From: a virus
Direction: 5' to 3' (one strand)
DNA length: 64,000 nucleotides
IMG/VR virus record: IMGVR_UViG_3300022200_000033
Coordinates: 13,078 to 77,077 of that record
The translations under genes and the position numbers were made by a program. Shown here piece by piece: positions 6,101 through 59,535 of the stretch (within the stretch, counting starts at the first letter, position 1; the number at the start of each line of letters is the position of its first letter). The notes below the pieces were generated by a model, which was not told the DNA's origin, searched no databases, and worked only from the letters and a program-made list of their open reading frames with translations.

Positions 6101-7924
6101 ATCAGGTTCGACAAAGAAATATGGGATCGTTGTTTCTGGGTATCCAGCAACTCTTTTAAATGTGTAGTTTGAAAATCCTATGTAGTCAAGCAATACCGTT
6201 ATCGCCCAGCTTAAAGATACATCTGTCAGCAGGAGCTCTGGGGCTGGTCTTGACTCAAGAAGAAAAAACAAGTCTCTTATGGTTACGCTTATTGTTGCTG
6301 CTTCTCCAGTAACCTGTGGAAATGACTCGCTATACATTGTCTTTACTGGAATGAAGTAGTCTATTCCATCTACCTCTTTTGTGATGTCGTAGAATAAAAA
6401 CTTTATTGGCATGTCTAAATAGTTTGCTAGGATGCTTCCTCTGTAGTCCTCAAAGTTAAAGACATTGTTTTGATTAAAAGAAAAGTCTGTATCAAAAACT
6501 TCAATCTGTCCTGTTGATGCAGAAAGTCCACCTACAGGTATAGATCCATTTCCAAGGTCTGACATTGTTTTTGTTATTGAGAATGACAAAACGCTTTCAC
6601 TCATTTCAACCAAAAGTCTTGGAGAAAGTTCTATTAGGTCAAATGTACAACCACTTTTATTCATTGTTTCAATAACTAACCTCATACCACCTAACCATTC
6701 GAACTCTCTAAACACTGGGTTGTTATTTGCATCATAAAAGTAATCTGGATTTGCTGGCTGTGTCACAAAGTTACTATTATAGTTAATCAATTCATCTGAC
6801 ACTGCCCAGGAGTAGTCTGGAGTAAAAGACACCCATTCTTCATTTATAAAAATCCACATCGTACCTAAATCATGGTCTGACTCTTTAACTAGGTAGGTAT
6901 ATCCTTCTGGAGCAGTATCTGGAAGTAGGGTTGAGTTTGGGATGGTGTCAGCAAATATAAAAATATCTCTATACTCTAATGGAATCTGTAATCCATAAGA
7001 TATTTCAACGTGACCGTCAAAACCAATTATAGGAGTTCCGTCAGACCTTAAAGATACGTCATCAAAAGATATCATAGTTACCCAACTATCATCTTCATCT
7101 AGCTTTTCAATTCTCCATCGAACTGGTGTAGTCTTATTATTGTCACCAAATAGCGGATCTTGTATTGATGTGTTTCCATATCTTAAGGTTCCTAAATCGA
7201 CACCTCCTACGTTTGTCTGCATCTTAACAACAATCTTGTTTGCTGGAACCTGGTTTTCATAGACAACAAAAGGAACAGAGTCTTCGATAGAGTGATTGCC
7301 ATTTACCAAAAACGAAATCCCTCTTTCAACTTGACGCAATTCTGATGTAGCACTTTCCCCAGGTCTTGGACTTGGAACCCCATATTCTGTTCTATAAGAA
7401 GTCCAGTATTTAAATAAATCATCTTTGTGAGACATATAGTATCTTGGCCTGTTAACAATGTATCCTTGATTTACTTCTTGTAAATCTGTTACCTTGTTGA
7501 TTGGAGATGGATTGGTTATGTACTGCGCTGTTTCGTATGTTGAACCAATGTTTCCAAGGTACAGTGGTTTGTTTATTCCTGACCTTGGTCTATGAGGACT
7601 TATACAATCATTTAAAGAATAAAGAAGCTTCATCTTTTCTTTAGGAGAGATAAACAGTGTTGGTTGATCTTGATCATCAAAGCCACTTTGGATAGCAACG
7701 TCAGAATCTGTTGCTCCTGTATACCAGTTTCCAATGTCTAATTCATCATAGTTTACGGGAAGAAGGTAGTATTCAGATCCAGAATACGTTGGTCTATAAC
7801 GATAGTTTCCAAGGTTTTTAATGTTTCCTGGCTGATTCATATTCCATTCAGCATATACCGCTGACTCAACTTTAACTGTATCTGAAGTTTTCAGATGATT
7901 TTCAAGTTCTTCTGATTGAAACAT
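3140..7924 (-). CDS. Large minor tail/baseplate hub protein
   Basis: 1594 aa, second gene after the tape measure (Tal/hub position); C-terminal 'NLQLGDIVNINY' motif typical of hub proteins. Confidence 0.7.
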   Translation of the reverse strand: MFQSEELENHLKTSDTVKVESAVYAEWNMNQPGNIKNLGNYRYRPTYSGSEYYLLPVNYDELDIGNWYTGATDSDVAIQSGFDDQDQPTLFISPKEKMKLLYSLNDCISPHRPRSGINKPLYLGNIGSTYETAQYITNPSPINKVTDLQEVNQGYIVNRPRYYMSHKDDLFKYWTSYRTEYGVPSPRPGESATSELRQVERGISFLVNGNHSIEDSVPFVVYENQVPANKIVVKMQTNVGGVDLGTLRYGNTSIQDPLFGDNNKTTPVRWRIEKLDEDDSWVTMISFDDVSLRSDGTPIIGFDGHVEISYGLQIPLEYRDIFIFADTIPNSTLLPDTAPEGYTYLVKESDHDLGTMWIFINEEWVSFTPDYSWAVSDELINYNSNFVTQPANPDYFYDANNNPVFREFEWLGGMRLVIETMNKSGCTFDLIELSPRLLVEMSESVLSFSITKTMSDLGNGSIPVGGLSASTGQIEVFDTDFSFNQNNVFNFEDYRGSILANYLDMPIKFLFYDITKEVDGIDYFIPVKTMYSESFPQVTGEAATISVTIRDLFFLLESRPAPELLLTDVSLSWAITVLLDYIGFSNYTFKRVAGYPETTIPYFFVEPDQNVAEMLQKLAVASQSTMFFDEYNNLVIMSKEYLLPNSEDERVTDTTMYGQVEGDNLPNIINLSSQDKLVYNDGEINYTTRYIQRSIGSTATAQKLDQYKEYIYKPVLLWEVQGREATKTINQLGAQNSGYTLGAVPLNTNLTEEVPYSLNNTVYNNVIDVGENVYWIPSYSGYFYANGEVIKFDAVEYSVSGEIEPVWVTSNQEYQDYFSRLTFNGKMFPTGNVRIYTKPEYEIIDGITNIKNGEIIEHGRGQFGTPITAHSAGLSSDSYWSDNLYVRGCIMDASKYLFTTGSYIEYPTTLQQGTAGKIQTSPYIDADSFSESSTRNGIIKNFLADSYATESEVNYYKTTGPGTIQSSALILNGPKFTDALPASSFISYVYKDFIDQNGEAIPYKHFGTRMRIVGKVESGTDKSQTPIGGYPIFEGSSGLELYSSSSNVSQNAPDQQVRIYGGSGGIGIGVNKETNNGYFFEIVALTADNVGDYVSDNNAGVKVANILSSPSPSCVANEVTVYTERQFDFQVGESVLISGLVDANDPTNTRTPLNGEYAITSIFPDKKSFKYVITSPTPLTTTSSTGGVASQSIQEATNIANIYFYKIVSDGSGSAIPVRLWSGLGQINVDSGEFVGQNRLAGESSTTVYDMSAEYINIGSARRFFLYLNGKQISTVDDIDPLPEYNNMAVFTRGSSRCMFENVYALANNYSESTTFTVDSGISKVFGDDLVDASEALRKYAISGIIQKTYLSGISSAEPPKYRMYFEEFGTILREVAYFNVKYDRAYPALYARLMNTMNRVKGYSVSGFYAGSYGADFLIFNCTDFNLNLDDTSGNYLRISGIAFTQDTTYNLNVDDYYKSKSILSNSDLGKSSTISNPFRVLEEYNKIKNSRIKYGVHQFTPIDSPYIQTSDAAEDVFGWVIDKVSVPKKAVGVNTFGTTNLQLGDIVNINYKDAQGQGIDIISPETSRFVIYNMEYKKDASGLSTTIYLLEV

Positions 7925-8560: not shown

Positions 8561-11500
8561 TCCTTATCTGTGTGCCCTGCATTTGCTTAATTTTTGCAAT
8601 TGTTATATTTGCAATTTCATCTGCAGAAGCTCCAGCGTTACTAACATTAACTCCAACGCTATAACTATTATACATGGGAGCAGAGATGTTTGTCGAATTG
8701 TTGGACTCCATCTTTGTCATACCTTCAGACTTAGGCATACTATATTTTGGCATTGAAAATGATCCCTGGTTTATTGATGAAAGCATAGGCATTCCATACT
8801 TATCTACCATTGATTTACGAATAACGAACTCTCCTGGAGTAAGTCTTGCAGAAACAGAGTCTCTAGATCCATTGCCAGCAACTCCGCCTGCCATCATTCC
8901 AGGAGGTGGTTCGTTAGAGGTGTACTTGAGTAAACCTCCTGCTGCATACCCCTTAATCATTCCTCCAGCGTAGTGAACTTGACCAGTACCATACCTGATG
9001 TTTCCTAGGGCTGGATTTCCTCCTGCATCTGTTGGCCCTACTGATGCTTTGGCAAGTGCTTCTCTTGCAGCATTACCTGCGGCAATCCAGGCATCCCTGT
9101 ACTCGTTAACCTTTGTAACGTTGCCAGCAATTGATGCAACTAGCGCGGCATTCTCATCTTTTTGTCTTTGAAATTCATCTGCCGTGAGTCCTGCAGCGGT
9201 AAGATTACTAAGCGCAATGTCAAGAGCCTTTTGATGATTTTCTAGTATTCTAGAGTGTTGATTGTTTTGATTTGTTAGTGGCTCAATCATATCTTCATTG
9301 ATATTGTAAATTTCATTAGTAAGTCTACGAACCTCAAGACTGTTTGCATAAATCTTATCTTCTTCCATTCTAATCATTAAGCTTGCTTGATAAGACTGTT
9401 CTTTTATATCTGCAATTTGTCTTTCAGCTTCTTCTCTTGTTAAGCCCTCGCTTGTTCTGAGAGAATCAATAGCATTCTGCTTCCCCTGTTCAAGACCTGC
9501 TCTTGCTTGATCCTGTGCATCCTTTGCTTGATTCTGACGCATTGCTTGTGCAGCTGCTGTTGCAGCATAGATATCTCCTTCTGACAAAGCTTGAGAAATT
9601 CCCAATTGATCTTTTTGTTGTTGCAGTATTCTGTTGTTTAGTTCTTGAACTTTGTTAAGGGCACTAATTCTTTTATCGTATGCCTCAGAAATCTTGGTCT
9701 CTTGTTGACCCATAAGATCAAGTTCATGAGAAAGAGCATCTGAAACCCTGTTTCTTAATTCATCTTGTCTTTGAAGATCATCAATATTTTGACTGGTTAA
9801 GTCATTGATGCGCTCGTAATCATCAATTTCTTCTTGTTTTCCGTCAATAAGGTCTTGCTGTATTTGAATTAACTCTTCATTTGCATCAATTTGTTTTTGA
9901 ATTTCTTTTGTTGTTTTTTGTTCTGCCCCGTAACGCTTTTCTGCAAACTCATTTTCTACCCTTGTTTTCTCAACATCAAAGGCCATGCCTACTGTATTTG
10001 AGTATTCTGACCATGCCTTATTAAGTTCATCTACTGGATCTTTTGCTTCTTTTGTTACTGCAATAAATTCCTCAAATGCCGCAACAACTTCTTTGACAGA
10101 CTTTCCACCCCTGCCTGCTTTTGCCTCCAAAAGAGTAAAGACATAATCTGTGTTTGAGGCAAGACTCTTTGCATCTTCTTCGCTAAACCCTTGATCTATT
10201 AACATTGATTCAGCTCTACCCGATCTCTTTTTTGTTTTTATCTCATCTTGCATTCCTCTAAGAGTTTCGGCAATAGTAGCCTTTCTGTATTTCGCAAGCA
10301 ACTCTTTAACTTTTTTCTTATTTGCATTAAGGAGTTCTTGTGCTCTTTTTATTCCTTCTTCTCCACCACCAATTGCTTCAATTATTTGTTGCGGAATTGC
10401 TGGGAATTTTTTCTTTATTTTATCTAACATTCTAGGGAACATTTGTAGATTTGCTTCAGTCTCAGCAATTAAATCTTCTAGCCATGATCTTGTTTCTGAA
10501 CCTCCACCAGTATCTTCGGTATCGTCCGTTGTATCACCTTCTGTTTCTGTCGTTACACTATCTGTTCCTGGAGCAAGGGCCCCCATAGCAGCACTCAAAA
10601 GTCTGAGCCTTTCTGCTTTTATCCATCTTTCAGCAGCATCTGGCGACATACCTTTTGGAACATCTAACTCTAAAGACATAAGAGCGGCAACAGCAATTTT
10701 TACAGAAGATGGTGCCTTAGCAAAATCTTCAAGACCCATGCTCATAGCCTTTAATCCAGCAGCAACGTTTCCTGGCGCTTCTCCAAAAACTACTTCAGCT
10801 TGCTTTTTAGCGTTTTTCTTACTTTGGAATAGTTCATAGTTTTTAGAAATTTTTTGTAAAGCAGTAGCACCAATTGCTTCTACGGTAAGGTTTTTTCTTA
10901 CTGAAGGAGGAAGTGTTTCTAAGTCTTTCAAAACGCTTGTCATGTTTTCTAACTCTTCAACACTCATACCCTCTGCAGCCAGAACCAAGGTAGCTCTAAC
11001 TTTTTCTGGTAAATCTTCTGGAAGCTTAAGCAAGAAATTTCCAAAAGCAAGAATTTCTTCTGGACTCTTACCTTCTGTTTCTAATGAAATAAGAAATTCA
11101 GATCTTGCAGTCTCCCCCAGGCTTGCATAAATTCTTTCTACTTCGTTTGCCTGATCAAAATCTCCTTCTACCCTTAAGCCCATGGTTACCCCAAGAACCT
11201 TTGAGGCTTCTCCCCTACCACCTTGCTCACGATAAAGATCGTCTAGAATTTTAGAAGCTTCTGGATCTGACTCTCCAATTGATAAATCAAATATCATTTG
11301 ATATCTAATTTCTCTTTGCTTTTGCTCATCTAGGGCTGGCAACCCAGCCTGCCTTCTTTGAATCTCCATTGCAATTCGAGCAGATGCTAGCATTTTGTCA
11401 GTATCTAGCCCTTCTGTGCTAGCCTCAACAGATCTTTGCATCCCAGTAAGAGTTTCTCTTCCAATATCTGACAGTTTTCCGTCTTCTTCGGTTAAAGAGT

Positions 11501-14500
11501 TCATGTATTCAAGAAGTTCTGCTCTTCTTTGAGCTATTACTTCAGATTGTTCTTCTCTCAACTTCTTTCTTTGTGCAACTGCCTCTTCAAGTTGTCCTTG
11601 TTTAAGAATTCTTGCTTCTGAAGCTTTTTTCCTTTTGTCTTCCGTTTTGGCATTTTTTTCTTTTTCTTTTTCTAGACGGATTTCTTCTTTAAGTTTATTT
11701 ATTTTATCTTGCTGTGCAACAATTTGATACTCAACATTGTCTGAAAGGCTTTTTGCATTAGAAACCAAAGACTGTGTATATGCCACGCTAGCCCTTACTG
11801 CTTCATCAAATTCTCCAAAAACTAATTCTGCTCCAGGAAGGTTTTCATAAAAATCATCTCCCCATTTTTTTGCACTTTCTTCGGCCTGCCTTTTTAAAGT
11901 TTTTTCATCAAGCTCAATGCTAGCAACAATATTTGCCAGTATCGTCATTGGTCTTTCTGTTATATCCTCTCCGCTGGCACTTAAAATTTGAGTAATTTGT
12001 GCTATTACCTGTGCAGACAATTCTTCTTTTCCAAGAGCTTCTGCAATTCCCGAAGCAACAGCTTTTGCTTGATCTGGTGTAATCGCACCACTCACAATTG
12101 CCATTGAAAGTTGATTAGCAAAGTTTGTTGCAAAACCAGATGCATTTGCTTTAAAGGAAAGCTTTGCCTCTTCTACCATAGTTTTTCCAAATTCTGTTTC
12201 TACAAATTTTCTTCCTTCTTCTACTACTTCTGGAGTAAGTCCAGCAATCTTATCTTCATTTCTTGATTTAGAAATATCTCTCACAGTTCCATTAAAAAAT
12301 TCACCAAGACTTTTAATTTCTGAGGATGCTAAATTCATAGAATCAGACATTTTTTTGCCAGCATCAATATTATTATCAAGACCTTTTTTCAAAGCAAATC
12401 CTGCAACAGCTACGGATGCAAGAGCTGTTCCCATAATGCCTATTGGGGTTAATAGCAACGGTAAAGCTTTAAGCAACGCTGGCATCACCATTGCAAGTCC
12501 TTGAAAAGCAAACATTGCTGGCATAATCTTTTGAGCGAATTCTCCAATAGGTCCACTTAGCATAGATGCTCCGAAAGCTAATCCGCTCATGGCTCCCATG
12601 GCTCCATTTACTTTTAGTCCCCCAGAAACCATAGTTTTTCCAAATTTTGATGCAGACCCCTTAAGTTTAGACATAGAAGATGAAACTTGTTCTGTTTCTT
12701 TAGTTAATTTTGTCTGAGATAGTATTTGATTTTGAATAGAGTTTGGTGCTATCTGAAGACCCATATTTCTTGGTGGCAGAGGAGAGGATGGCCCTCCCAG
12801 TGGATTCATGGGCCCCATCCTTCCAGCAAATCTTGCATCAAAAGGTGTTGTCATTCCTGGAGCTATCGGAGGCATATTTAGGCTTAATGCTCTGCCTTTT
12901 TCCATAGCAGCTTTTATCTTTAAGTGAGCATCTTGAAGTTCTGCAGACATACCCTGCTCTATTCCCTGCCCAATCCATCCTCCAAGCTGAAGTGACCATG
13001 GTGGTGGGGAAGCAGCATTGGCACCTTCAGTAACTGCTGGCCTTAGTTCTCTTCCTCCAGAAAGACCAAACTCCCTAAACACTCTTTGTGCTGTTGATGT
13101 GCTAAACCCAGAGTCTGTAAGCATTTTCCTGCCTAGATCTGGGTCCATTCCTTGTGCTATCGCTGATGCAAAGATTGCCTTAGATGCTACGCCTCCAGCC
13201 CTCATCTGAGTGGCAAATGTAGCCCAGTATGCTCTAGATCCCTGTATTGCTGCTTGCTCTGCTGACTGTACAGATGAACGAATTAGTTCTGGGGAAACCT
13301 GATCAGAAGAAAATAACAGAGGTGCTTTTCTATAAGTTCTTCCAGAAGAAAGACTTTCTTGTCTTGTTCTTACTGAAGCGTCTCCCAGAGGGGAGGATAT
13401 TCTAATCCTATCGTTTTCTTGATCCATAACGATATTTCTTTCTGCAAGGAGTCTTCTTTGTTCATCTGTAAGATCTGATAGCCCACCAACGCTTACTCTT
13501 AAGTTGTTGTATTCATTTGAAAGATTTTCTATTTCAGAAAGCATCTGCCTTGTTTCATCGTCAAGACTAGAAAATGCTGTTCTAAAAATTTCATCAATGT
13601 TAGAGTCGCCAACTATTGCAAAATCTTCAGCAGCAGAGACTATCGCATTGTCAAGAAGCTGTAGCTTTGGCCTTAATTCTTCAAAATCTTGTCCAGTTAC
13701 TGCTACTGTGCTTTGCCATTTTTCTACTCCTGCTCCACCAAATTCCTGCCCAAATGATCCTCCAGTTAAAGAATCTCTTCTCATTGCTTCATTGAAATTT
13801 GTTGGCATTTCAACAATAAGATTGCTTACAGCGCCAATACTAGAAATTGTTCTTCCAAGAACTCTTTCAATTTCTTGCAAAACTGTAAGATTTCTTCTTG
13901 CACCTGCGGTTAAATTTTCCATAGCAAGGGCTTCTGAAGTGCCCAAACTTACTCTTCCAGTTAAATGAGTTCTAGCAGTTGAACCAACATAATCTGAAAG
14001 CTTTGACCCATCATTCAAACCTTTGACTGTTCCACGATTCATGGCATCAAGTACGGGAGCAAATCTTCTGGTTGCTTCTTTATTCATTACAAATTCACCA
14101 GGGGTTAGTAGTGCTGGCTCAGTATCTTTATTTCCAACGCCACTGATCATTCCACCAGTAGCCATTTTTTTAACAGGACGACCTCCAAATCCCTGAGGAA
14201 GTCCTGAAGCAGCAGAACCCGCTGCAGCAACATATGTTCCATAAGCTCTTGAAAGCTGTCCTACCGCACTTCTTTGAACGTTTAATGCAGCAGTTAATCT
14301 GGTGGTCTTTCCCTCTAAGCTTGCTGCTGCTGCTGCTGCATCTAACTGTTCTCCTGCCAAATATGAAAGATCCTGACCCCCACCCCTTAATCTGTTAAAC
14401 AAATTGTTAAACATTGCAAAACCTTTTACAGCTTGACCAATAAAGTTACCAAACAAACCAATAAGCATAATTACTGTTGGAGCCACAACCCCAACTCCAG

Positions 14501-47686: not shown

Positions 47687-47794
47687 TCAACGGTAATCTC
47701 CTAATTTAATAACTTGATTATATCATGATTTAAATAAACCAATATACAATGATAACGACTCTATAACGATATTTAAGATATTTGATGGTACGAC

Positions 47795-47822
47795 TTGACA
47801 AGTATTTTTTATGCTGTACACT
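47795..47822 (+). promoter_or_regulatory. SigA-type promoter for thyX
   Basis: TTGACA-N16-TACACT. Confidence 0.55.
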
Positions 47823-47910: not shown

Positions 47911-48603
47911 TTGATTTCTGTTTTGGATCATGGTTATATAAAGTTAATAAATAATATGGGTTCTGATTTAGATGTAGTAAATGCTGCAAGAGTTTCTTTT
48001 GATAAAGAAGTTTCTTCTCTTGGCGATAAAGATATTAATCTCATTAACTTCCTGGTAAAAGATAAGCATGATTCTACTTTAAGACATTGTGTTTCTACCT
48101 TTGAAATCTATGCTCCTCTCATGGTAGCTAGACAATGGTATAAACATGCAGTTTCATCATCCCACCTGGATGATCAACTTGGTTGGAATGAATCTTCTAG
48201 AAGGTATGTTACTGAGAAAGAGCAATTCTACATCCCTACTGTCTTTGAGTGGCGCAGTGCCCCAGAGAACCGCAAGCAGGGGTCAGGGGAGTCCGTAAAT
48301 AGTGAAGTTGGGGCAAAGTGTCTCCAAAGATTACGAGCCTCTGTAGAGCGTGGAATCAGAGATTATGAAGAAGCACTCAAAGATGGGGTAGCCCCAGAAC
48401 AAGCACGACTCCTTCTCCCCGCATACGCAATGTATGTACGTTGGAGATGGACTGCTAGCCTCAATGCTCTCCTACACTTTGTAAGTCTACGAGACAAGCA
48501 AGATGCTCAATATGAAATTAGGGAATATGCTAAGGCAGTCAACACAAGCCTTCATCAACTCTACCCTCATACGACAAGAGCCTGGAATGAGTTTAGGATT
48601 TAA
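47911..48603 (+). CDS. thyX: Flavin-dependent thymidylate synthase
   Basis: 'VVNAARVSF','H.S','ARQWYKH','WNESSRRY','EQARLLLP','AQYEIR.YA'. Confidence 0.93.
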   Translation: MISVLDHGYIKLINNMGSDLDVVNAARVSFDKEVSSLGDKDINLINFLVKDKHDSTLRHCVSTFEIYAPLMVARQWYKHAVSSSHLDDQLGWNESSRRYVTEKEQFYIPTVFEWRSAPENRKQGSGESVNSEVGAKCLQRLRASVERGIRDYEEALKDGVAPEQARLLLPAYAMYVRWRWTASLNALLHFVSLRDKQDAQYEIREYAKAVNTSLHQLYPHTTRAWNEFRI

Positions 48604-48706
48604 TTGATGCTTTTCCGTGCGGCGAAAATAGAAGAAAACAATACAAACATGTATATACGTTCTTCAGTTCGCACGAACATCTGCACAGTTGCTTCTAAGG
48701 AAGCAT

Positions 48707-49081
48707 ATGCAGTCTAAACGTGCAAAAAAGCGAGCAGCTAAATGGAGATTGGCAGGAATGATTAAAACTTCTATAGGCTGTAAAGATTGTGGGTATAATA
48801 AAAGTCCATATGCTTTACAATTTGATCACATAGGAGATGACAAAAAAGGTAGTGTTTCCAATCTTATACGCTCTGATTATTGCTGGGGTACTATTAAAAC
48901 AGAAATATCAAAATGTGAAGTTGTCTGTGCTAATTGTCACGCTGTTAGAACAAAAGAAAGAGGACAGCATAATTCACAAACGTATGATGCTACTTCATAT
49001 CACGAATCTGTTGAGAAAGGTCTTCAATCTTACGCTCAAGGGCTTTATTCTCAAAAAGTAATTGTTGATTTTGACCTTTAA
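48707..49081 (+). CDS. HNH endonuclease-like protein
   Basis: 'GCKDCG','LQFDH','EISKCEVVCANCH'. Confidence 0.85.
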   Translation: MQSKRAKKRAAKWRLAGMIKTSIGCKDCGYNKSPYALQFDHIGDDKKGSVSNLIRSDYCWGTIKTEISKCEVVCANCHAVRTKERGQHNSQTYDATSYHESVEKGLQSYAQGLYSQKVIVDFDL

Positions 49082-50293: not shown

Positions 50294-50428
50294 TTACCAT
50301 TTGTACAATGGGCATGTTGCTAGTCGTAGTGTTATATAATCGTCTATCTCTTGATCGTTCTTAAGGCAAAAGCCATTAAGGTTCTCTATGCATTCCCCGC
50401 AGATTTTTATTCTTTCTGGATAATACAT
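50294..50428 (-). CDS. 44-aa DUF6171-like Cys protein, not in the ORF track
   Basis: MYYPERIKICGEC...FC...TCPLYKW; ATG 6 nt after TATAAT. Confidence 0.7.
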   Translation of the reverse strand: MYYPERIKICGECIENLNGFCLKNDQEIDDYITLRLATCPLYKW

Positions 50429-50837
50429 AATGTCATTATACTCTAAAGTTTAAAAATATTATGCAACCTATATAGCACATTACCTGGGTTAATGCGTAGT
50501 ATATGTCTCATTAATATGTTTTCTATATGTGTAAAAGTTTAAAAATTTTGTATTTTCAAAATTGACTAAAGTTTAATATTTTTTAGATGTGTACGATACG
50601 CAAATCTGACAAAACGGACATAACGGATTAGTGAGCACACTAGGAGAAATCCGTAGAAAATTGATCAAAAGTCGACTAAAGAATTTTATTTTAGCCATGT
50701 ATGCGACTATATCCGTTGTTATAGATATCCATATCTTCGGATACCGTTGCCTATACCGTCCTATTATCGGTCAATGTCAGACCCCTGTGTTAGTATGTAT
50801 ACATAAAGTTAAATAAACAAAAGAAAGAAGAAATAAA

Positions 50838-50963
50838 ATGTTAAACAGTTTCCAAAGAGAAGGTCAAGTCCTAGCACCATTGAACACTTGCATAGACGGT
50901 AACGGTCACGTTACTAGTGCTAGCAGAGTTTGTTTCAAGTGCAATGAAGATCTCAATAAGTGA
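50838..50963 (+). CDS. 41-aa Cys/His peptide (first cassette)
   Basis: MLNSFQREGQVLAPLNTCIDGNGH...CFKC; follows the motif promoter and an AGAAG RBS. Confidence 0.55.
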   Translation: MLNSFQREGQVLAPLNTCIDGNGHVTSASRVCFKCNEDLNK

Positions 50964-51074
50964 TCTAACTCACACAAAGACAATTCGGACATAACGGATA
51001 TTCAACTTCCCAAATGTCAGACCCCAATGTTATACTAAACATATAAAGATAAAGATACTAAAGAAAGTAATAAA

Positions 51075-51260
51075 ATGAACGTAATAACAAAAATCAAGTG
51101 CAATGGCTTCCTATGCCTCTCCTCTGCTACTCGCCATAATGCGATTGAGAATGTCTCTCGCGTATACCCTAACGGTAGTGTAGATATCATTCCAATGTGT
51201 GAGCGTTGCTCTACTTGTGCCCAAGATGTTTGGGAAGATGTAACGATAACCGTTATCTAA
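51075..51260 (+). CDS. Small Zn-finger-like protein
   Basis: C..C...CERC; own motif promoter. Confidence 0.65.
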   Translation: MNVITKIKCNGFLCLSSATRHNAIENVSRVYPNGSVDIIPMCERCSTCAQDVWEDVTITVI

Positions 51261-51333
51261 CTGCTATCTAACTACCCTCAAATAGGGTATCAAATGTCAG
51301 ACCCCTAGTGTAGTCTAGGACTATAAATAAATA

Positions 51334-51397
51334 GAGAGTAGAGCGTGAGCCTAGCAAATAATCCGAAAGGTGAGCCTAGCAAATAATCGTTCCTCTC
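51334..51397 (+). ncRNA. Candidate two-fold symmetric structured RNA
   Basis: Closing stem GAGAG-TA-GAGCG/CGTTC-CTCTC, two identical TGAGCCTAGCAAATAAT loops, CC-GAAA-GG cap. Confidence 0.6.
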
Positions 51398-51430
51398 ACC
51401 CCCCACAAACTAACTAATAAAGGAAATAAA

Positions 51431-51550
51431 ATGACTTACTTAATTGGAACATATCAGCCAGAGATGAACGGCTACCGTGGTGCAATTCCCGCCATGATCC
51501 ACTACAAGATCAAAGAAAATCATCACCGTTTGACAGATCCATTCATCTAA
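51431..51550 (+). CDS. 39-aa peptide
   Basis: AAGGA RBS; stop directly before the next motif. Confidence 0.55.
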   Translation: MTYLIGTYQPEMNGYRGAIPAMIHYKIKENHHRLTDPFI

Positions 51551-51606
51551 CAAATGTCAGACCCCCATGTTAATATAAACTTAATCAAACAAACAAAGGA
51601 AACAAA

Positions 51607-51768
51607 ATGCAATCACTACTAATAAAGACAGTACATGTAAAGACAGGTTTAGTACATGAGTTTGCCTATGAGTGCCATAACGAGGCTACACAAATGGCAA
51701 TCGTTAGCGGTACCTTGGAATCTTGCTCACGCACAGGTTGGGCTATATGCGAAATGCAGGTGGCATAA
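51607..51768 (+). CDS. 53-aa hypothetical protein
   Basis: AAGGA RBS after a motif promoter; TAATG-coupled to a short TM peptide. Confidence 0.6.
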   Translation: MQSLLIKTVHVKTGLVHEFAYECHNEATQMAIVSGTLESCSRTGWAICEMQVA

Positions 51769-51846
51769 TGTTAGATGCCGCGATATTTATTCTGGCAGGT
51801 GTAATTGTTGGCTATGTCATTAGACTAGCCCAAGAGATGAAAGAAG

Positions 51847-52062
51847 ATGCAAATGAAATTGACTAAGCGTGGTAACCGTGTTGTCTCTGTTGCATTTATT
51901 GCATTCATTCTATCTACCCTCGCGCTTGCGGGTAGGTTCGAAGCATTAGATCAATGCGCTACATTCCAAGCAGACAATAACTATTCTGATGCACTAGATG
52001 CAGGTTGCTCATTCGATGTATTGCCTAATGGCGAATATCCTTACACATGGGAGGTAAAGTAA
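51847..52062 (+). CDS. Small membrane protein
   Basis: 'KLTKRG' followed by a TM helix. Confidence 0.65.
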   Translation: MQMKLTKRGNRVVSVAFIAFILSTLALAGRFEALDQCATFQADNNYSDALDAGCSFDVLPNGEYPYTWEVK

Positions 52063-52226
52063 TGCAAATCAACACACCAACATTGCAAATTGTTTGGAAT
52101 GGATCACATACCGCTAACGTGTATAACTATTTAGATAATGAATTAGATGCATTTACTTTTGCTTTTGATCGCAAACCTAATGCAATTGATTTTGTTTCAG
52201 CTACCGCTCAATACTTGGAGGACTAA
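52062..52226 (+). CDS. 54-aa hypothetical protein
   Basis: GGAGGT RBS, TAATG coupling at both ends. Confidence 0.6.
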   Translation: MQINTPTLQIVWNGSHTANVYNYLDNELDAFTFAFDRKPNAIDFVSATAQYLED

Positions 52227-52477
52227 TGATAAATAATAAAAAAATAAAGATCAATCACATGATGGCAGATACTCTATCTATCTCTACAGGAGAGGGTGCA
52301 TATTGTGGAGAGGGATCTAGTGAAATTGCATTCTTCAAAAATAAAGATTGGCAAGTAATTCCAATTCCCGAATTCGCTACATACCATGATGGTAGTGATA
52401 GCGTTGCAGAGACAGCCGTCTATCCATATGTACCTAATGAAAAGATAGAAAAGTTTTTAGATAAATACCGCGCATGA
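52226..52477 (+). CDS. Hypothetical protein
   Basis: GGAGG RBS; 'SISTGEGAYC...EIAFF...VYPYVP'. Confidence 0.65.
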   Translation: MINNKKIKINHMMADTLSISTGEGAYCGEGSSEIAFFKNKDWQVIPIPEFATYHDGSDSVAETAVYPYVPNEKIEKFLDKYRA

Positions 52478-52662
52478 AAAGCGTTGGTATATAAGGGTTT
52501 TTGATATAGCTAAAATACGTTGGTAATAAAGGAGTTTTGGTGCCTGCTTTCTTGTTAATTGTTTTCGTTCTTTCTGTATGTGCTTGGGCGGCTAGTGTCT
52601 TGTAAAACCGTTGGTACTAAAGGGATTTTTAGACTTGACATTTGAGAAAAATCCCGGCCCCC

Positions 52663-52798
52663 TGTGGATAACTTGTGGATAACCTTAAGATAACCCTTAA
52701 GAACCTGTGGAAAACCTGTGGAAACCTATTAACCTAATGTTCATCTTTAACACGGCGTGTCGATTTGACAAGCTTTTTTGTGCATAACTTGTGGATAA
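52663..52798 (-). promoter_or_regulatory. Cluster of six DnaA boxes in three pairs
   Basis: TGTGGATAA at 52663, 52674, 52790; variants TGTGGAAAA 52706, TGTGGAAAC 52717, TGTGCATAA 52779 (reverse of TTATCCACA). Confidence 0.85.
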
Positions 52799-52906
52799 CT
52801 TCGTTATCATTCTGTTATAAAACAAAAACGGACATATAGGATATTCGATAGGTCAAATGTCAGACCCTCGTGATAGGATCTAGTTACTAGATCGAAAGGA
52901 TAAAAA

Positions 52907-53053
52907 ATGTTTATTTACCTAGTTACCCTTACCAATGGCTCTACCGTGCGTGTCGAAACCGCAGGTGACCCTACCGTACACCCCGCGTTCTTTGAGCGCG
53001 TAGCCAATGTGGAAACCATTGGTGAATCTGGCAAATTACTCTCCCTAGTGTAA
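52907..53053 (+). CDS. 48-aa cassette protein
   Basis: GAAAGGA RBS; stop TAA is the start of the next motif. Confidence 0.65.
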   Translation: MFIYLVTLTNGSTVRVETAGDPTVHPAFFERVANVETIGESGKLLSLV

Positions 53054-53105
53054 TGTCAGACCCCCATGATAAACTAAACTTAGAAACATAGAAAAGAGAA
53101 ATAAA

Positions 53106-53264
53106 ATGAAAACATTCCTACACACAAATGACAATTCCCCTATGCCTACCTGCTCAGGTTGCTATAACCGACATGAGCCAGAAATGTGTCCACACGGTGA
53201 CATTGACAGTCTGCTAGAAAATTGGGAATGCACTCACGGGCATTTCAATTGCACTAAGCACTAA
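53106..53264 (+). CDS. 52-aa Cys/His-rich cassette protein
   Basis: CSGC..H....C.H...C.H...C; stop overlaps the next motif. Confidence 0.6.
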   Translation: MKTFLHTNDNSPMPTCSGCYNRHEPEMCPHGDIDSLLENWECTHGHFNCTKH

Positions 53265-53314
53265 ATGTCAGACCCCTGTGATAGTCTTTACTTATTCAAT
53301 CGAAAGGAAACAAA

Positions 53315-53527
53315 ATGTACAATCTTCAGAATCTCCCTAAGGATACCGCTGACTACCTTAACGAGTATCACTTAATTGCTGCCCGTGAAATCTCTCGCTT
53401 GCAGGCTCTCCCTGAAAGTGTAAAGCAAGCAAATGCAAACTCTCACCTCATTGGAAATGTAGACGGCGTTAGTCGTTGCGTTGATTGCGAAATTGGTGTT
53501 TGGAATGCATGGAAGCGTCAATGCTAA
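53315..53527 (+). CDS. 70-aa cassette protein with H..CVDC
   Basis: GAAAGGA RBS; stop overlaps the next motif. Confidence 0.7.
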   Translation: MYNLQNLPKDTADYLNEYHLIAAREISRLQALPESVKQANANSHLIGNVDGVSRCVDCEIGVWNAWKRQC

Positions 53528-53573
53528 TGTCAGTCCCCCATGCTAAGATCAAAATCTAACGAAAGGTAAAACT

Positions 53574-53738
53574 ATGAATCATCAAGCAATCATCACCCAC
53601 GTTTATTGCGGTGTGGAAAGCACTAGCGAAGTGGAAGACTTAGACCTAACCATGTTCTATGCAAAGTTCACGGGAACTATAAAAGGCATAACTAATGCGG
53701 GTTCACACATAACCAAAGTGGAAACGGTGGCAGTCTAA
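53574..53738 (+). CDS. 54-aa cassette protein
   Basis: GAAAGG RBS; stop overlaps the next motif. Confidence 0.62.
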   Translation: MNHQAIITHVYCGVESTSEVEDLDLTMFYAKFTGTIKGITNAGSHITKVETVAV

Positions 53739-53785
53739 TGTCATACCCCCATGGTAATGTGATCCCCATAAAGAAAGGAAATCAA

Positions 53786-54690
53786 ATGTCGGAACTCAAT
53801 AAGGCTTGGCGAGATATCTACTACATGCTAGAAGATAACGCTTTCGACTATGTTGGAAAGCCATTCTATAACGACAAGGAAGGAACCGTACAACTTTGGA
53901 ACGGTTCACAATTCATAACATATGCGGAGGTTCCATTCTAATGACAAAAGTTTCTATGCCCCGCGCAGATTGGGATACCGTCATCATGATATTGACAGAT
54001 GCACGCGATAGCGGAAAGTTCGCATACCTTGATCACATAACAGACACCATTGACCATGCACTAGATACCCAGGAGAACTAATGAAACAATTATTTATTTA
54101 TCATCAAGGAACATCAACACTCATTCCATTGAATGATGAGGTGTATCTAGTTGCCGCCGATATTGTTGGCGATGAAATGATCAACGACATGTCTGAAGGT
54201 TGCAACGTGTATCCAATGGAACACAAAGGATACCGCTTAGACAATTACAACATGACCAATTTATTTTTTGGAGGTGCAGAGTGACAAACTTTATCTGTGA
54301 ACATTGCGAATCAAATGAAAATCCTCAATCTGAAATGTGGGAGGAACTGTGTGTGTATTGTAATGAAACAATGCTAATCGCAAACCTAGAAATGGTGCAA
54401 CGACAAATCAAACTAATAGAAATGGATTAGCATGAAAACAAATTGGGCGCTAACAGAAGAAAAAAATATCAGCTTCGAACATTGCAACCGTCCTGCGTAT
54501 TGGGAAAATGAAAATGTTTATTGCTCAAAGTGTGGAGAGGAATTGCCAGATGTTATCTAATAAAGATTTGACACAAAAAGAGTTTGACGTTGCGCTAGAT
54601 CTAAAAATTGCAATGAATTGTTTGATGCAAGAAAACACGTTGGGAACAAAGGAGTATTTGCAGTCTGCAATTAAAAAGTTGCATACCTGA
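53786..54690 (+). CDS. Run of six coupled small ORFs (53786-53941, 53941-54081, 54081-54284, 54281-54430, 54432-54560, 54550-54690); two carry CxxC motifs
   Basis: TAATG/GTGA coupling and GGAG RBSs. Confidence 0.6.
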
Positions 54691-54820
54691 AAAACTGTTG
54701 GTAATAAAGGGTTTTTTGGGGCCCGGCCCATTTTCTTCCACTTGTCAAGTCTTTAAGATGTGTTTAAGATCACACCGAAAAACCCTTGACTTTTTATATA
54801 AAATAAGATAAAATGACATC

Positions 54821-54961
54821 ATGATCAAGACACGAAAAAAGACTAGCGAAGAAATTAGATTCTGGCAAGAATTGCGTAGATCTAACGCTGCCCAGAGTCA
54901 TCGCAATAAGAAAAAATATACTAGAAAAAATAAGCACAAGTCCTTGACTTTCTCTGAATAA
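54821..54961 (+). CDS. 46-aa basic ArfA-like peptide, not in the ORF track
   Basis: MIKTRKKTSEEIRFWQELRRSNAAQSHRNKKKYTRKNKHKSLTFSE; leaderless after TTGACT-N17-TAAAAT. Confidence 0.7.
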   Translation: MIKTRKKTSEEIRFWQELRRSNAAQSHRNKKKYTRKNKHKSLTFSE

Positions 54962-54978
54962 TAAGATAGGTTAATCTC

Positions 54979-55098
54979 ATGATATTAGAACTTGACCAAG
55001 ATGAATTCGATCAATTTGTTTCTATGCTACTACGCGATCCTGTAAATAAGCCAAAGCTTGCTAATCGTATGGCTACCCCCGCACCCTTCACCGACTAA
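54979..55098 (+). CDS. 39-aa peptide resembling the C-terminus of TacA/AtaR (DUF1778) antitoxins, not in the ORF track
   Basis: MILELDQDEFDQFVSMLLRDPVNKPKLANRMATPAPFTD; leaderless after TTGACT-N17-TAGGTT. Confidence 0.65.
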   Translation: MILELDQDEFDQFVSMLLRDPVNKPKLANRMATPAPFTD

Positions 55099-55127
55099 AT
55101 GTCAGACCCCCATGTTAGGATAACACC

Positions 55128-55915: not shown

Positions 55916-56117
55916 TTTTTTTGCAGGAATTGTTTTGATTGGGCTTGCGATATTTTTTGCGTTCAAGTATTGGTGAGTCAAAAACTGTTGGTACTAAAGG
56001 GTTTTAGCGGCCCGGCACGTTTTATTAGCTTTGTCAACCTTTTAAGAATCAATTAAGAATATGGCAGAAATCTGCATGAATTTGACAAGTGTCAGTCCTC
56101 TATGCTAAGGTAACCAC

Positions 56118-58140: not shown

Positions 58141-58303
58141 GTAGGGAAAATCCCGGCACGCGAGCTCTGATTTGTCAAGCTTTTATGATGTGATTAAGGA
58201 CACACTAGAAATCTGGGAGTTTTTATAAATAACTATTGACAAATGTCAGTCACATAGTATATAGTTTGACTATCAAATAAACACACTATAGATAGGAAAT
58301 CAC

Positions 58304-59332: not shown

Positions 59333-59535
59333 CCCCCACCATGTAAATATAAAAGCTGACTTGACATTTGCATGGCAAAGGGGCCGGAAACATTTTTCTA
59401 TATAAACATAAATAATAACTCTATTAAGATGCATTAAGATGAATCCCAGGAATTTGCCAATATTTTTGTAGTAAACACTTGACATTTGACAGATATGTGT
59501 ATAGGATTGCGCTATAACTACAACTAAGGAGAATT

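Follow-up and report, generated by a model that had tools for sequence, protein, structure and literature searches.

A cluster of six DnaA boxes in the genome of an uncultured virus may be a docking array for the DnaA protein of the host, built into the control DNA that lies upstream of one of the early promoters of the phage; this is the reading that we favour, and we hold it tentatively. The stretch of DNA analysed (hereafter the window) spans 64,000 nucleotides, i.e., bases 13078-77077 of the 77,077-bp IMG/VR record IMGVR_UViG_3300022200_000033, which is classed as linear with a completeness estimated at about 71%. The array occupies untranslated DNA that runs from the end of one early operon to the extended -10 promoter of the next. 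All six boxes are co-oriented 9-mers on the plus strand, confined to 136 bp (52663-52798) of a 430-bp gap without a credible gene, which extends from the stop of a small plus-strand gene at 52477 to the next start at 52907. They form three pairs (Table 1), each with a period of 11 bp, i.e., a 2-bp spacer, and all are found where the original prediction had described them. Three boxes are perfect copies of TGTGGATAA (reverse complement of TTATCCACA), two carry one mismatch each, at box positions 3 and 5, and the last carries two mismatches, or a single one when compared with TTWTNCACA; the pairs thus score 0+0, 1+2, and 1+0 mismatches. Such clustering is far beyond chance. The whole record holds only three perfect boxes, all of them in the array, and in 1000 first-order Markov simulations of the record a 150-bp stretch with three or more perfect boxes never arose, and one with two arose in three simulations. 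Boxes with at most one mismatch are in no excess over the window as a whole (19 found vs 22 expected). With respect to the inferred start of the conserved extended -10 promoter, the array is located about 90-220 bp upstream, the centres of the pairs falling at about -213, -170, and -98, and the two box centres of the promoter-proximal pair lying about 103 and 92 bp upstream.

The relatives that we examined comprise 13 loci retrieved through the DUF7178 gene and 74 loci (1.12 Mb) retrieved through the DUF932 gene. In a 101-kb relative (L008), the orthologous gap carries the same three pairs in the same order, and in two others (L006, a 99.5-kb relative, and L007) boxes stand at the same places with the first pair inverted. 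When the gap is compared with that of L008, 49 of 54 box positions are identical as against 101 of 151 other gap positions (91% vs 67%; Fisher p = 6e-4), which answers the check on conservation that the original prediction had called for and indicates purifying selection on the boxes, the intervening DNA being left to drift. The same preference is seen at the scale of the family. The 74 loci contain 306 perfect boxes against eight copies of the reversed word (about 38-fold) and 116 double boxes against one control (11- or 12-bp period, at most two mismatches), and boxes occur in 66 of the 74. Among seven relatives whose genomes are complete or nearly so, the number of perfect boxes ranges from 3 to 11 (5-11 in the complete ones), compared with 0-1 control words, and most of these boxes lie within the 15-30 kb or so around the early arm; they are distributed over two to five separate sites per early arm, whereas the present record has a single site. 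Only 33% of the boxes fall inside open reading frames (ORFs) of at least 50 aa, as against 79% of random positions. Where the partner of a perfect box is imperfect, position 5 is changed in 22 cases and position 3 in 15, seven of the latter to the G of the actinobacterial TTGTCCACA, and the core of the box (T4 and C6-A9) takes only four of 52 mismatches. Since variation is concentrated at positions 3 and 5, where TTWTNCACA is tolerant, it bears the signature of DnaA.

A search for the DNA-binding domain of DnaA (Bac_DnaA_C, PF08299) gave no match in this record and in five near-complete relatives; host DnaA is therefore the likely reader of the boxes, and we regard it as highly probable that it would bind the array. 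A co-oriented pair of boxes 2 or 3 bp apart is the unit to which DnaA of E. coli binds in vivo, a spacer one bp longer being ineffective, and in the purH double box that was tested each half matches TTATCCACA at 7/9 or better (PMC11317965). The three pairs of the array are built likewise, with the same orientation, a 2-bp spacer, and a close match to TTATCCACA. The chromosomal double DnaA boxes of Stringer, Fitzgerald and Wade 2024 (PMC11317965) would accordingly be the closest mechanistic model: they too are co-oriented 9-mers 2-3 bp apart, usually a perfect box next to an imperfect one, and they are promoter-proximal and intergenic, but the phage array stacks three pairs in 136 bp and lies further upstream (about -90 to -220). 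Purifying selection, double-box geometry, variation at tolerated positions, and the lack of a phage DnaA domain in these genomes together strengthen the assignment to DnaA.

It is hardly credible, in our opinion, that the 11-bp repeats are instead iterons for a DNA-binding protein of the phage, with the DnaA consensus arising by coincidence. The region is indeed rich in phage repeats of the same period (TTAAGA, GTTAY, GTTCATC), and GATAAC/GTTATC is common to the box and the neighbouring repeat; however, the 9-mer is identical to the universal consensus, its variants lie mainly at positions 3 and 5, the 2-3-bp spacing of the pairs is that of DnaA, and an identical 21-mer pair occurs in at least 120 other viral contigs of all sizes. 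This 21-mer (L017-L136 in IMG/VR) reproduces pair 1 exactly, with its two perfect boxes separated by CT; many of the contigs among the matches listed are 4-8 kb long, and all carry 2-11 perfect boxes in 300 bp. Among cultured phages, megablast and blastn searches with the region as query detected no relative, the sole match being the DnaA repeat of a microvirus. In this phage, Microvirus mar31 (L142, MZ089777.1), eleven head-to-tail copies of TGTGGAAAACC, which is the unit of pair 2, follow each other with an 11-bp period at 1955-2075, in a 630-bp non-coding gap from the capsid to the pilot genes of a complete microvirus genome. The mar31 array could be a DnaA-dependent origin of the complementary strand or another DnaA dock, in this case of a single-stranded DNA phage. 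Since the 21-mer recurs in at least 120 contigs and a microvirus carries eleven copies of a unit, phased DnaA-box repeats are widespread among viruses.

What connects the boxes with transcription is their position. In the interval 60-200 bp upstream of the promoter element we counted 47 boxes as against nine random positions, and a composite made of a DnaA box, N3, GTTAY-N6-GTTAY, and, 35-60 bp further on, the promoter was found in 14 distinct contexts at 11 related loci. In a more distant relative (L213), seven perfect boxes are each accompanied, at a distance of 12 bp, by a repeat pair of the GTTCAYC type. The DUF932 gene is instructive in this respect: its promoter is preceded by TTAAGA-type repeats in the window, by a DnaA double box in L155, L158, L159, and L195, and by one DnaA box plus a TTAAGA pair in L201. 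Because DnaA pairs and other repeats swap at orthologous promoters, they behave as alternative operators. At box clusters outside origins, DnaA is known to act as repressor, roadblock, or activator (PMC2533591; PMC11317965). It is therefore tempting to hypothesize, in keeping with the host-DnaA docking array that we favour, that a dimer of ATP-DnaA would sit on each pair and that DnaA would oligomerise along the phased array; together with readers of GTTAY (MtrA-like), GTTCATC (PHO-like), TTAAGA, and CTTGWCAAG, it would raise, lower, or insulate the transcription of the cassette operon, and the early programme of the phage would thereby read the replication and growth state of its host. Multicopy phage DNA might also keep some DnaA off the host origin, as a side effect rather than a purpose. 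Among the functions that had been proposed at first, that of a sensor is the best fit with intergenic, promoter-upstream boxes that swap with other operators, and a classical origin is the least supported.

Several observations weigh against this interpretation. The distance between the proximal box and the promoter varies (54, 67, 67, and 80 bp), which is loose for an activator that works from one face of the helix; with respect to transcription, the two orientations of the boxes stand at no more than 2:1 in the family, and L006 and L007 have the first pair inverted. The association with promoters was counted only in relatives that share the promoter element, and the actinobacterial nature of the host is only inferred, from the nearest cultured relatives. 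Simple occlusion of a promoter by DnaA was considered and rejected, the boxes overlapping neither a -35 nor a -10 element: a sigma-70 consensus scan of the gap gave no match, and a search by eye found no -10 element that both overlaps the boxes and is suitably spaced from either TTGACA. Finally, the phage brings a helicase, a primase, SSB, and DnaE of its own without a recognised initiator or loader, which leaves room for an origin.

In that case host DnaA would open nearby DNA, or an R-loop would form at the promoter as at oriF/oriG of T4, and the DnaB-type helicase of the phage would be loaded at one or several origins. We consider this unlikely. The 13 kb that precede the window encode a DnaB-type helicase, a primase, SSB, a DnaE-type polymerase, a UvsX-like recombinase, a Cas4-type exonuclease, endonuclease VII, and RuvC, and neither an initiator nor a helicase loader could be recognised in the 77-kb record, in which the array is the sole DnaA site. 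Moreover, at 52625-52682 an AT-rich 27-mer is followed by a G+C block and two tandem boxes whose TGTGG end faces that block. This order agrees in polarity with DUE-R1 (DUE, DNA unwinding element) in E. coli oriC and with the basal unwinding system of B. subtilis, which comprises tandem DnaA boxes, a G+C cluster, DnaA-trios, and AT-rich DNA. On the other hand, an AT-rich unwinding element was not found: the most easily melted 40-bp window of the gap ranks at the 2.4th percentile of duplex stability in the record and the best 80-bp window at the 9th, much softer DNA exists elsewhere (50400-50590 and 47700), and the boxes have no AT-rich flank across the family. A run of DnaA-trios is likewise absent, with at most three trinucleotides with a central A seen by eye upstream of the G+C block and none in register in L008 and L012, where the stretch from the G+C block to the upstream motif is neither conserved nor AT-rich. 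The G+C block stands at all operon boundaries, box-free ones included, and the polarity is not kept, the first pair being inverted in L006 and L007. Membership in the basal unwinding system was thus rejected, and the array falls outside the oriC class since neither the unwinding element nor the trios that define it were found. Relatives have several separate sites over some 15-30 kb, and the replication genes lie more than 50 kb from the array. As to the GC-skew that had been recommended as a check, the skew runs with the orientation of the genes and its cumulative minimum falls near 38 kb, which speaks against an origin at the array.

A layout that seems more origin-like than the array of the window is found in a more distant relative, L155, where a five-box cluster at 14230-14480 is followed by three iteron-like AAACCTAACAA repeats, a point in favour of an origin in this family. 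In L155, and similarly in L175 and L211, the main cluster of three to five co-oriented boxes lies 4-6 kb downstream of the DUF932 start. In the window, the start of the early arm (50400-50600) and the strand-switch region (47700-47800) are among the easiest-melting DNA of the record, the latter with an inverted GTTAT pair, TTAAGAT, and a perfect CTTGACAAG; they would be better candidates for an unwinding site than the gap with the DnaA boxes, if a conventional one exists.

A second function that can be ascribed to such boxes is that of a sink, in which a multicopy array sequesters ATP-DnaA like datA or the clusters of B. subtilis and stops new rounds of host replication, so that nucleotides are spared for the phage. 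The perfect paired boxes are of the high-affinity type, several sites per genome without a fixed place are found across the family, and the phage encodes nucleotide-supply genes, namely those of a ribonucleotide reductase and of ThyX. Yet three to eleven perfect boxes per genome represent a small capacity until late in infection, and a sink has no need of a position, whereas the boxes keep to modules upstream of promoters, next to a fixed partner repeat; nor was a site of the IHF type, known from datA, noticed, although no search aimed at it was made. We deem the sink improbable. The comparison with datA of E. coli and with the B. subtilis clusters (Ishikawa 2007, PMC2533591) holds insofar as several high-affinity boxes stand in intergenic DNA away from the origin. 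In B. subtilis, DnaA acts at these clusters mostly as repressor or roadblock and as activator at sda (PMC2533591). The chromosomal clusters near oriC, however, serve the cell's own control of initiation, and datA does so by a hydrolysis that depends on IHF, whereas the array sits on a lytic phage and has a small sink capacity.

The closest published parallel is provided by the DnaA boxes in the first-step-transfer DNA of phage T5. The 10.2-kb terminal repeat of T5 has 7-8 paired DnaA boxes in regions that are untranslated and repeated (10.1101/866236), and our own scan of T5 located pairs with a 12-bp period at 6182, between divergent pre-early promoters, and at 9437 and 9498, both within the annotated injection stop signal. 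Both phages are large virulent siphophages, and in both six to eight boxes, about half of them perfect, form co-oriented pairs in stretches that are rich in repeats, untranslated, and surrounded by very small early genes; a position between promoters is likewise found for one T5 pair, and the function is unproven in either case. By analogy, the early arm might belong to a long terminal repeat whose boxes are bound by DnaA held at the membrane; this would anchor the incoming DNA or halt its entry for as long as early proteins are lacking, as has been proposed for the injection stop signal of T5. Streptomyces phage Karimac (L229/L235) lends some substance to this idea: it shares with our phage the order of ThyX, HNH, tiny co-oriented cassette genes (26 in Karimac), and DUF932/DUF945, with DUF945 near the end, and genes 1-27 of its block constitute a 12,590-bp direct terminal repeat, ThyX lying just outside; the gene order from 47911-49081 of the window onward corresponds to the inner boundary and the content of that repeat. 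In addition, the ThyX-HNH gap is where the two contig ends of G001, a relative of 99.5 kb, meet, at a junction homologous to the boundary of the Karimac repeat, and some 2 kb downstream of the array its motifs are found again in inverted orientation (repeats I1 and I6). The early arm of this phage family may thus be a long terminal repeat, and the comparison with T5 made in the original prediction was apt.

A checkpoint of the T5 type remains, in our view, quite improbable. The "terminal repeats" listed by IMG/VR for two complete relatives are 55- and 123-bp overlaps of circular assemblies, uninformative as to the true ends; homologs of T5 A1, A2, and dmp were not found by tblastn (E <=0.01) in this record and the loci of relatives that were searched, although non-homologous analogues may exist; the Karimac repeat is devoid of a DnaA-box cluster; and even in T5 the part that DnaA plays in the stop is only a hypothesis. 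The boxes of the relatives are spread over the whole arm, at many promoters, and not gathered at one stop point, whereas T5 has them in two fixed blocks. The two systems also differ in spacer (3 bp in T5, 2 bp in the array), in the large inverted repeats of the IRC/IRD type, of which the array pairs have no equivalent apart from weak inverted matches of short motifs (73-76%) 2 kb away, and in lineage, the array belonging to an unrelated phage with a DnaE replisome and a Stanwilliamsviridae-like portal.

The docking array that we favour does not stand alone in the gap. Reading toward the promoter, three copies of a 27-nt motif, an inverted repeat, and a G+C block precede pair 1; two TTAAGA repeats separate it from pair 2, which is followed by the GTTCATC pair, by GGCGTGTCG + TTGACAAG, and by pair 3; GTTAT-N6-GTTAT, a ACGGACAT motif, the promoter, and a ribosome site then lead to the ATG at 52907 (Table 1). 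The smaller elements that the original prediction had listed are all present at the places stated: the two TTAAGA repeats, the ATTAACC/GTTCATC pair, of which like copies are equally placed in the modules of relatives, GGCGTGTCG adjoining TTGACA (52754-52770), which several of these modules keep, and GTTAT-N6-GTTAT, which is also found inverted at 47752-47767.

Table 1. Elements of the control gap and the gene that follows it, in coordinates of the window
Feature	Position	Strand	Remarks
27-nt motif, three copies (A-run / GTTGGTA-N-TAAAGG / T-run)	52476-52502, 52512-52538, 52603-52629	+	Repeat families D6/D7
ORF of 21 hydrophobic residues, GTG start, AAAGGAG ribosome site	52540..52605	+	Between motif copies 2 and 3
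9-bp inverted repeat (52622-52630 / 52647-52655) around TTGACA (52635-52640), then G+C block	52622..52662		
Double DnaA box 1, both perfect, 2-bp spacer	52663..52682 (52663-52671, 52674-52682)	+	Kept in L008; inverted pair in L006, L007
TTAAGA, two copies (52685, 52697), in register with the DnaA units	52685..52702	+	Operator-like
Double DnaA box 2, TGTGGAAAA (one mismatch, tolerated position) + TGTGGAAAC, 2-bp spacer	52706..52725 (boxes start at 52706, 52717)	+	Kept in L008
ATTAACC-N4-GTTCATC direct-repeat pair, 11-bp period	52728..52745	+	PHO-box-like; similar copies in L006, L008, L012 modules
GGCGTGTCG + TTGACAAG	52754..52772	+	Second part near-palindromic, CTTGWCAAG-type
Double DnaA box 3, promoter-proximal, TGTGCATAA (position 5 mismatch) + perfect box, 2-bp spacer	52779..52798 (boxes start at 52779, 52790)	+	Kept in L008, L006, L007, L012
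GTTAT-N6-GTTAT, 3 bp past the last DnaA box	52803..52818	+	Resembles S. coelicolor MtrA consensus (PMC5650626)
ACGGACATA-type motif, ending some 35 bp ahead of the promoter	52822..52842	+	Repeat families D8/D13; also at 50608, 50979; either orientation in relatives
Phage promoter: AATGTCAGACCC spacer element, extended -10 TG (52871-52872), -10 TAGGAT (52874-52879)	52856..52879	+	
First gene of the cassette operon 3' of the array, 48 aa	52907..53053	+	Orthologs 81-83% identical in two near-complete relatives

With regard to the regulators that may read these elements, the MtrA consensus of S. coelicolor is (G/T)T(G/A)ACC-N5-GT(G/T)ACN (PMC5650626), and PHO boxes are made of 11-nt units arranged in pairs, the 7-nt core of which reads GTTCACC in S. 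coelicolor (PMC4415409). Calling GTTAYN-N5-GTTAYN MtrA-like and the GTTCATC pair PHO-like thus appears to give reasonable leads, within the bounds of a loose Streptomyces consensus and an inferred host. Regions that combine DnaA boxes with MtrA sites exist in actinobacteria, e.g., oriC and the dnaA promoter of M. tuberculosis, where, like here, a box is followed by repeats at a fixed distance; those of the phage are two 6-nt direct repeats with a 5-nt spacer and resemble MtrA half-sites of the GT(G/T)AC type. In mycobacteria, MtrA binds oriC. The difference from the MtrA systems is that the likeness of the phage site is to a loose consensus and that the composite of a DnaA box and a GTTAY pair is not above chance in bacteria: 596 Gb of bacterial genomes contained 10 scattered matches, about four being estimated by chance, and the composite was rejected as a design of host chromosomes. 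The GTTAT-N6-GTTAT pattern has seven matches in the window (0.64 expected), three of which are the DnaA pairs themselves, and, GTTAT being the head of the box, the repeat could be a decayed inverted DnaA pair. The OmpR-family-like and PHO-box-like labels of the original prediction accordingly gain some support as leads, from the likeness to MtrA and PHO sites and from the actinophage relatives, tempered by the loose consensus and by the kinship of GTTAT with the DnaA box. The WhiA label for GGCGTGTCG, derived from a 5-mer, stays tentative.

The remaining elements are shared with other parts of the early arm. The 27-nt motif (A-run, CGTTGGTA-N-TAAAGG, T-run) also occurs at 54632-54658, 54690-54716, and 55980-56000, at the ends of early operons, and is kept in relatives, at times inverted. 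Its predicted RNA fold, an A-U stem with a conserved 7-nt loop, is not more stable than shuffled sequences; the motif possibly marks the end of the upstream operon as a weak hairpin, a terminator, a processing site, or a protein site. A sequence comparable to the small hydrophobic ORF stands directly before the 27-nt motif in relatives. The 10-bp G+C block (52653-52662) abuts the first DnaA box, and such a block with CCGG is found at every large gap of the early arm in the window, with boxes or without. At 54.7, 56.0, 58.15, and 59.4 kb these gaps combine the CCGG block with a TGTCAAG site, TTAAGA-type repeats, and a promoter, and none of the four has DnaA boxes. TTAAGA occurs as exact pairs at the operon boundaries at 54753 and 56042 and as a degenerate pair at 58183; more broadly, TTAAGA(T)-type pairs 11-12 bp apart lie upstream of early-arm promoters at 52685-52702, 54753-54769, 56042-56058, 58183-58199, and 59455-59472, each preceded by a G+C block with a lone CCGG and by a near-palindrome of the CTTGWCAAG type, and they are probably the operator of some regulator. 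CTTGWCAAG with at most one mismatch was found 33 times vs 18.7 expected, and GGCGTGTCG + TTGACAAG recurs ahead of DnaA pairs in L006, L008 (twice), and L012 and ahead of a promoter in L166. The promoter element itself is present in eleven copies (50771-55113), mainly directly upstream of the starts of small ORFs; the promoters of the early arm are built from a AATGTCAGACCCC spacer element, an extended -10 TG, and a TAnnnT hexamer, the -35 element, if present, being TTGACA at 17-18 bp.

The phage to which the array belongs is an uncultured siphophage of about 100 kb, related to the Streptomyces phages of the Stanwilliamsviridae. Its minus-strand genes in the window encode tail, portal, protease, capsid, and tail-fibre proteins as well as the ribonucleotide reductase. 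The portal is 45-46% identical to that of Streptomyces phages of 121-132 kb, to which group DnaE (53%) and the DUF932 protein (55%) also point, and homologs of the DUF7178 protein are almost confined to phages of Mycobacterium, Gordonia, and Rhodococcus. To judge from these nearest cultured relatives, the host is probably an actinobacterium, and one of low G+C since the phage itself has a G+C content of only about 39%; the style of the promoters is a weaker hint in the same direction. The early-type arm begins at about 50.6 kb on the plus strand and consists of tiny genes, mostly each behind a copy of the conserved promoter. Pfam and PHROGs recognised among its proteins DUF7178 and DUF932 alone, with no regulator and no initiator, and Rfam detected no family within 50-56.5 kb.

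DnaA boxes of virulent phages have been documented mainly for T5, where their role is still unsolved after nearly forty years. That an unrelated and much larger family of uncultured phages (about 100-118 kb, with their own replisome and probably actinobacterial hosts) keeps double boxes under selection argues that docking the host initiator may be a general strategy of phages and not an oddity of T5, and the comparative set of positions, spacings, and partner repeats gathered here offers an approach to the T5 question. A broader idea, to which we give little weight at present, is that a widespread family of virulent phages of about 100-118 kb wires its early promoters to master regulators of the host, by means of DnaA double boxes set at a fixed distance from direct repeats of the OmpR-family type (MtrA-like GTTAY pairs and PHO-like GTTCATC pairs), so that infection would be gated by the replication cycle and the nutrient state of the cell. 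If DnaA does gate early transcription, this would represent a new route by which a lytic phage reads the physiology of its host, sensing the state of the cell through the replication initiator itself.

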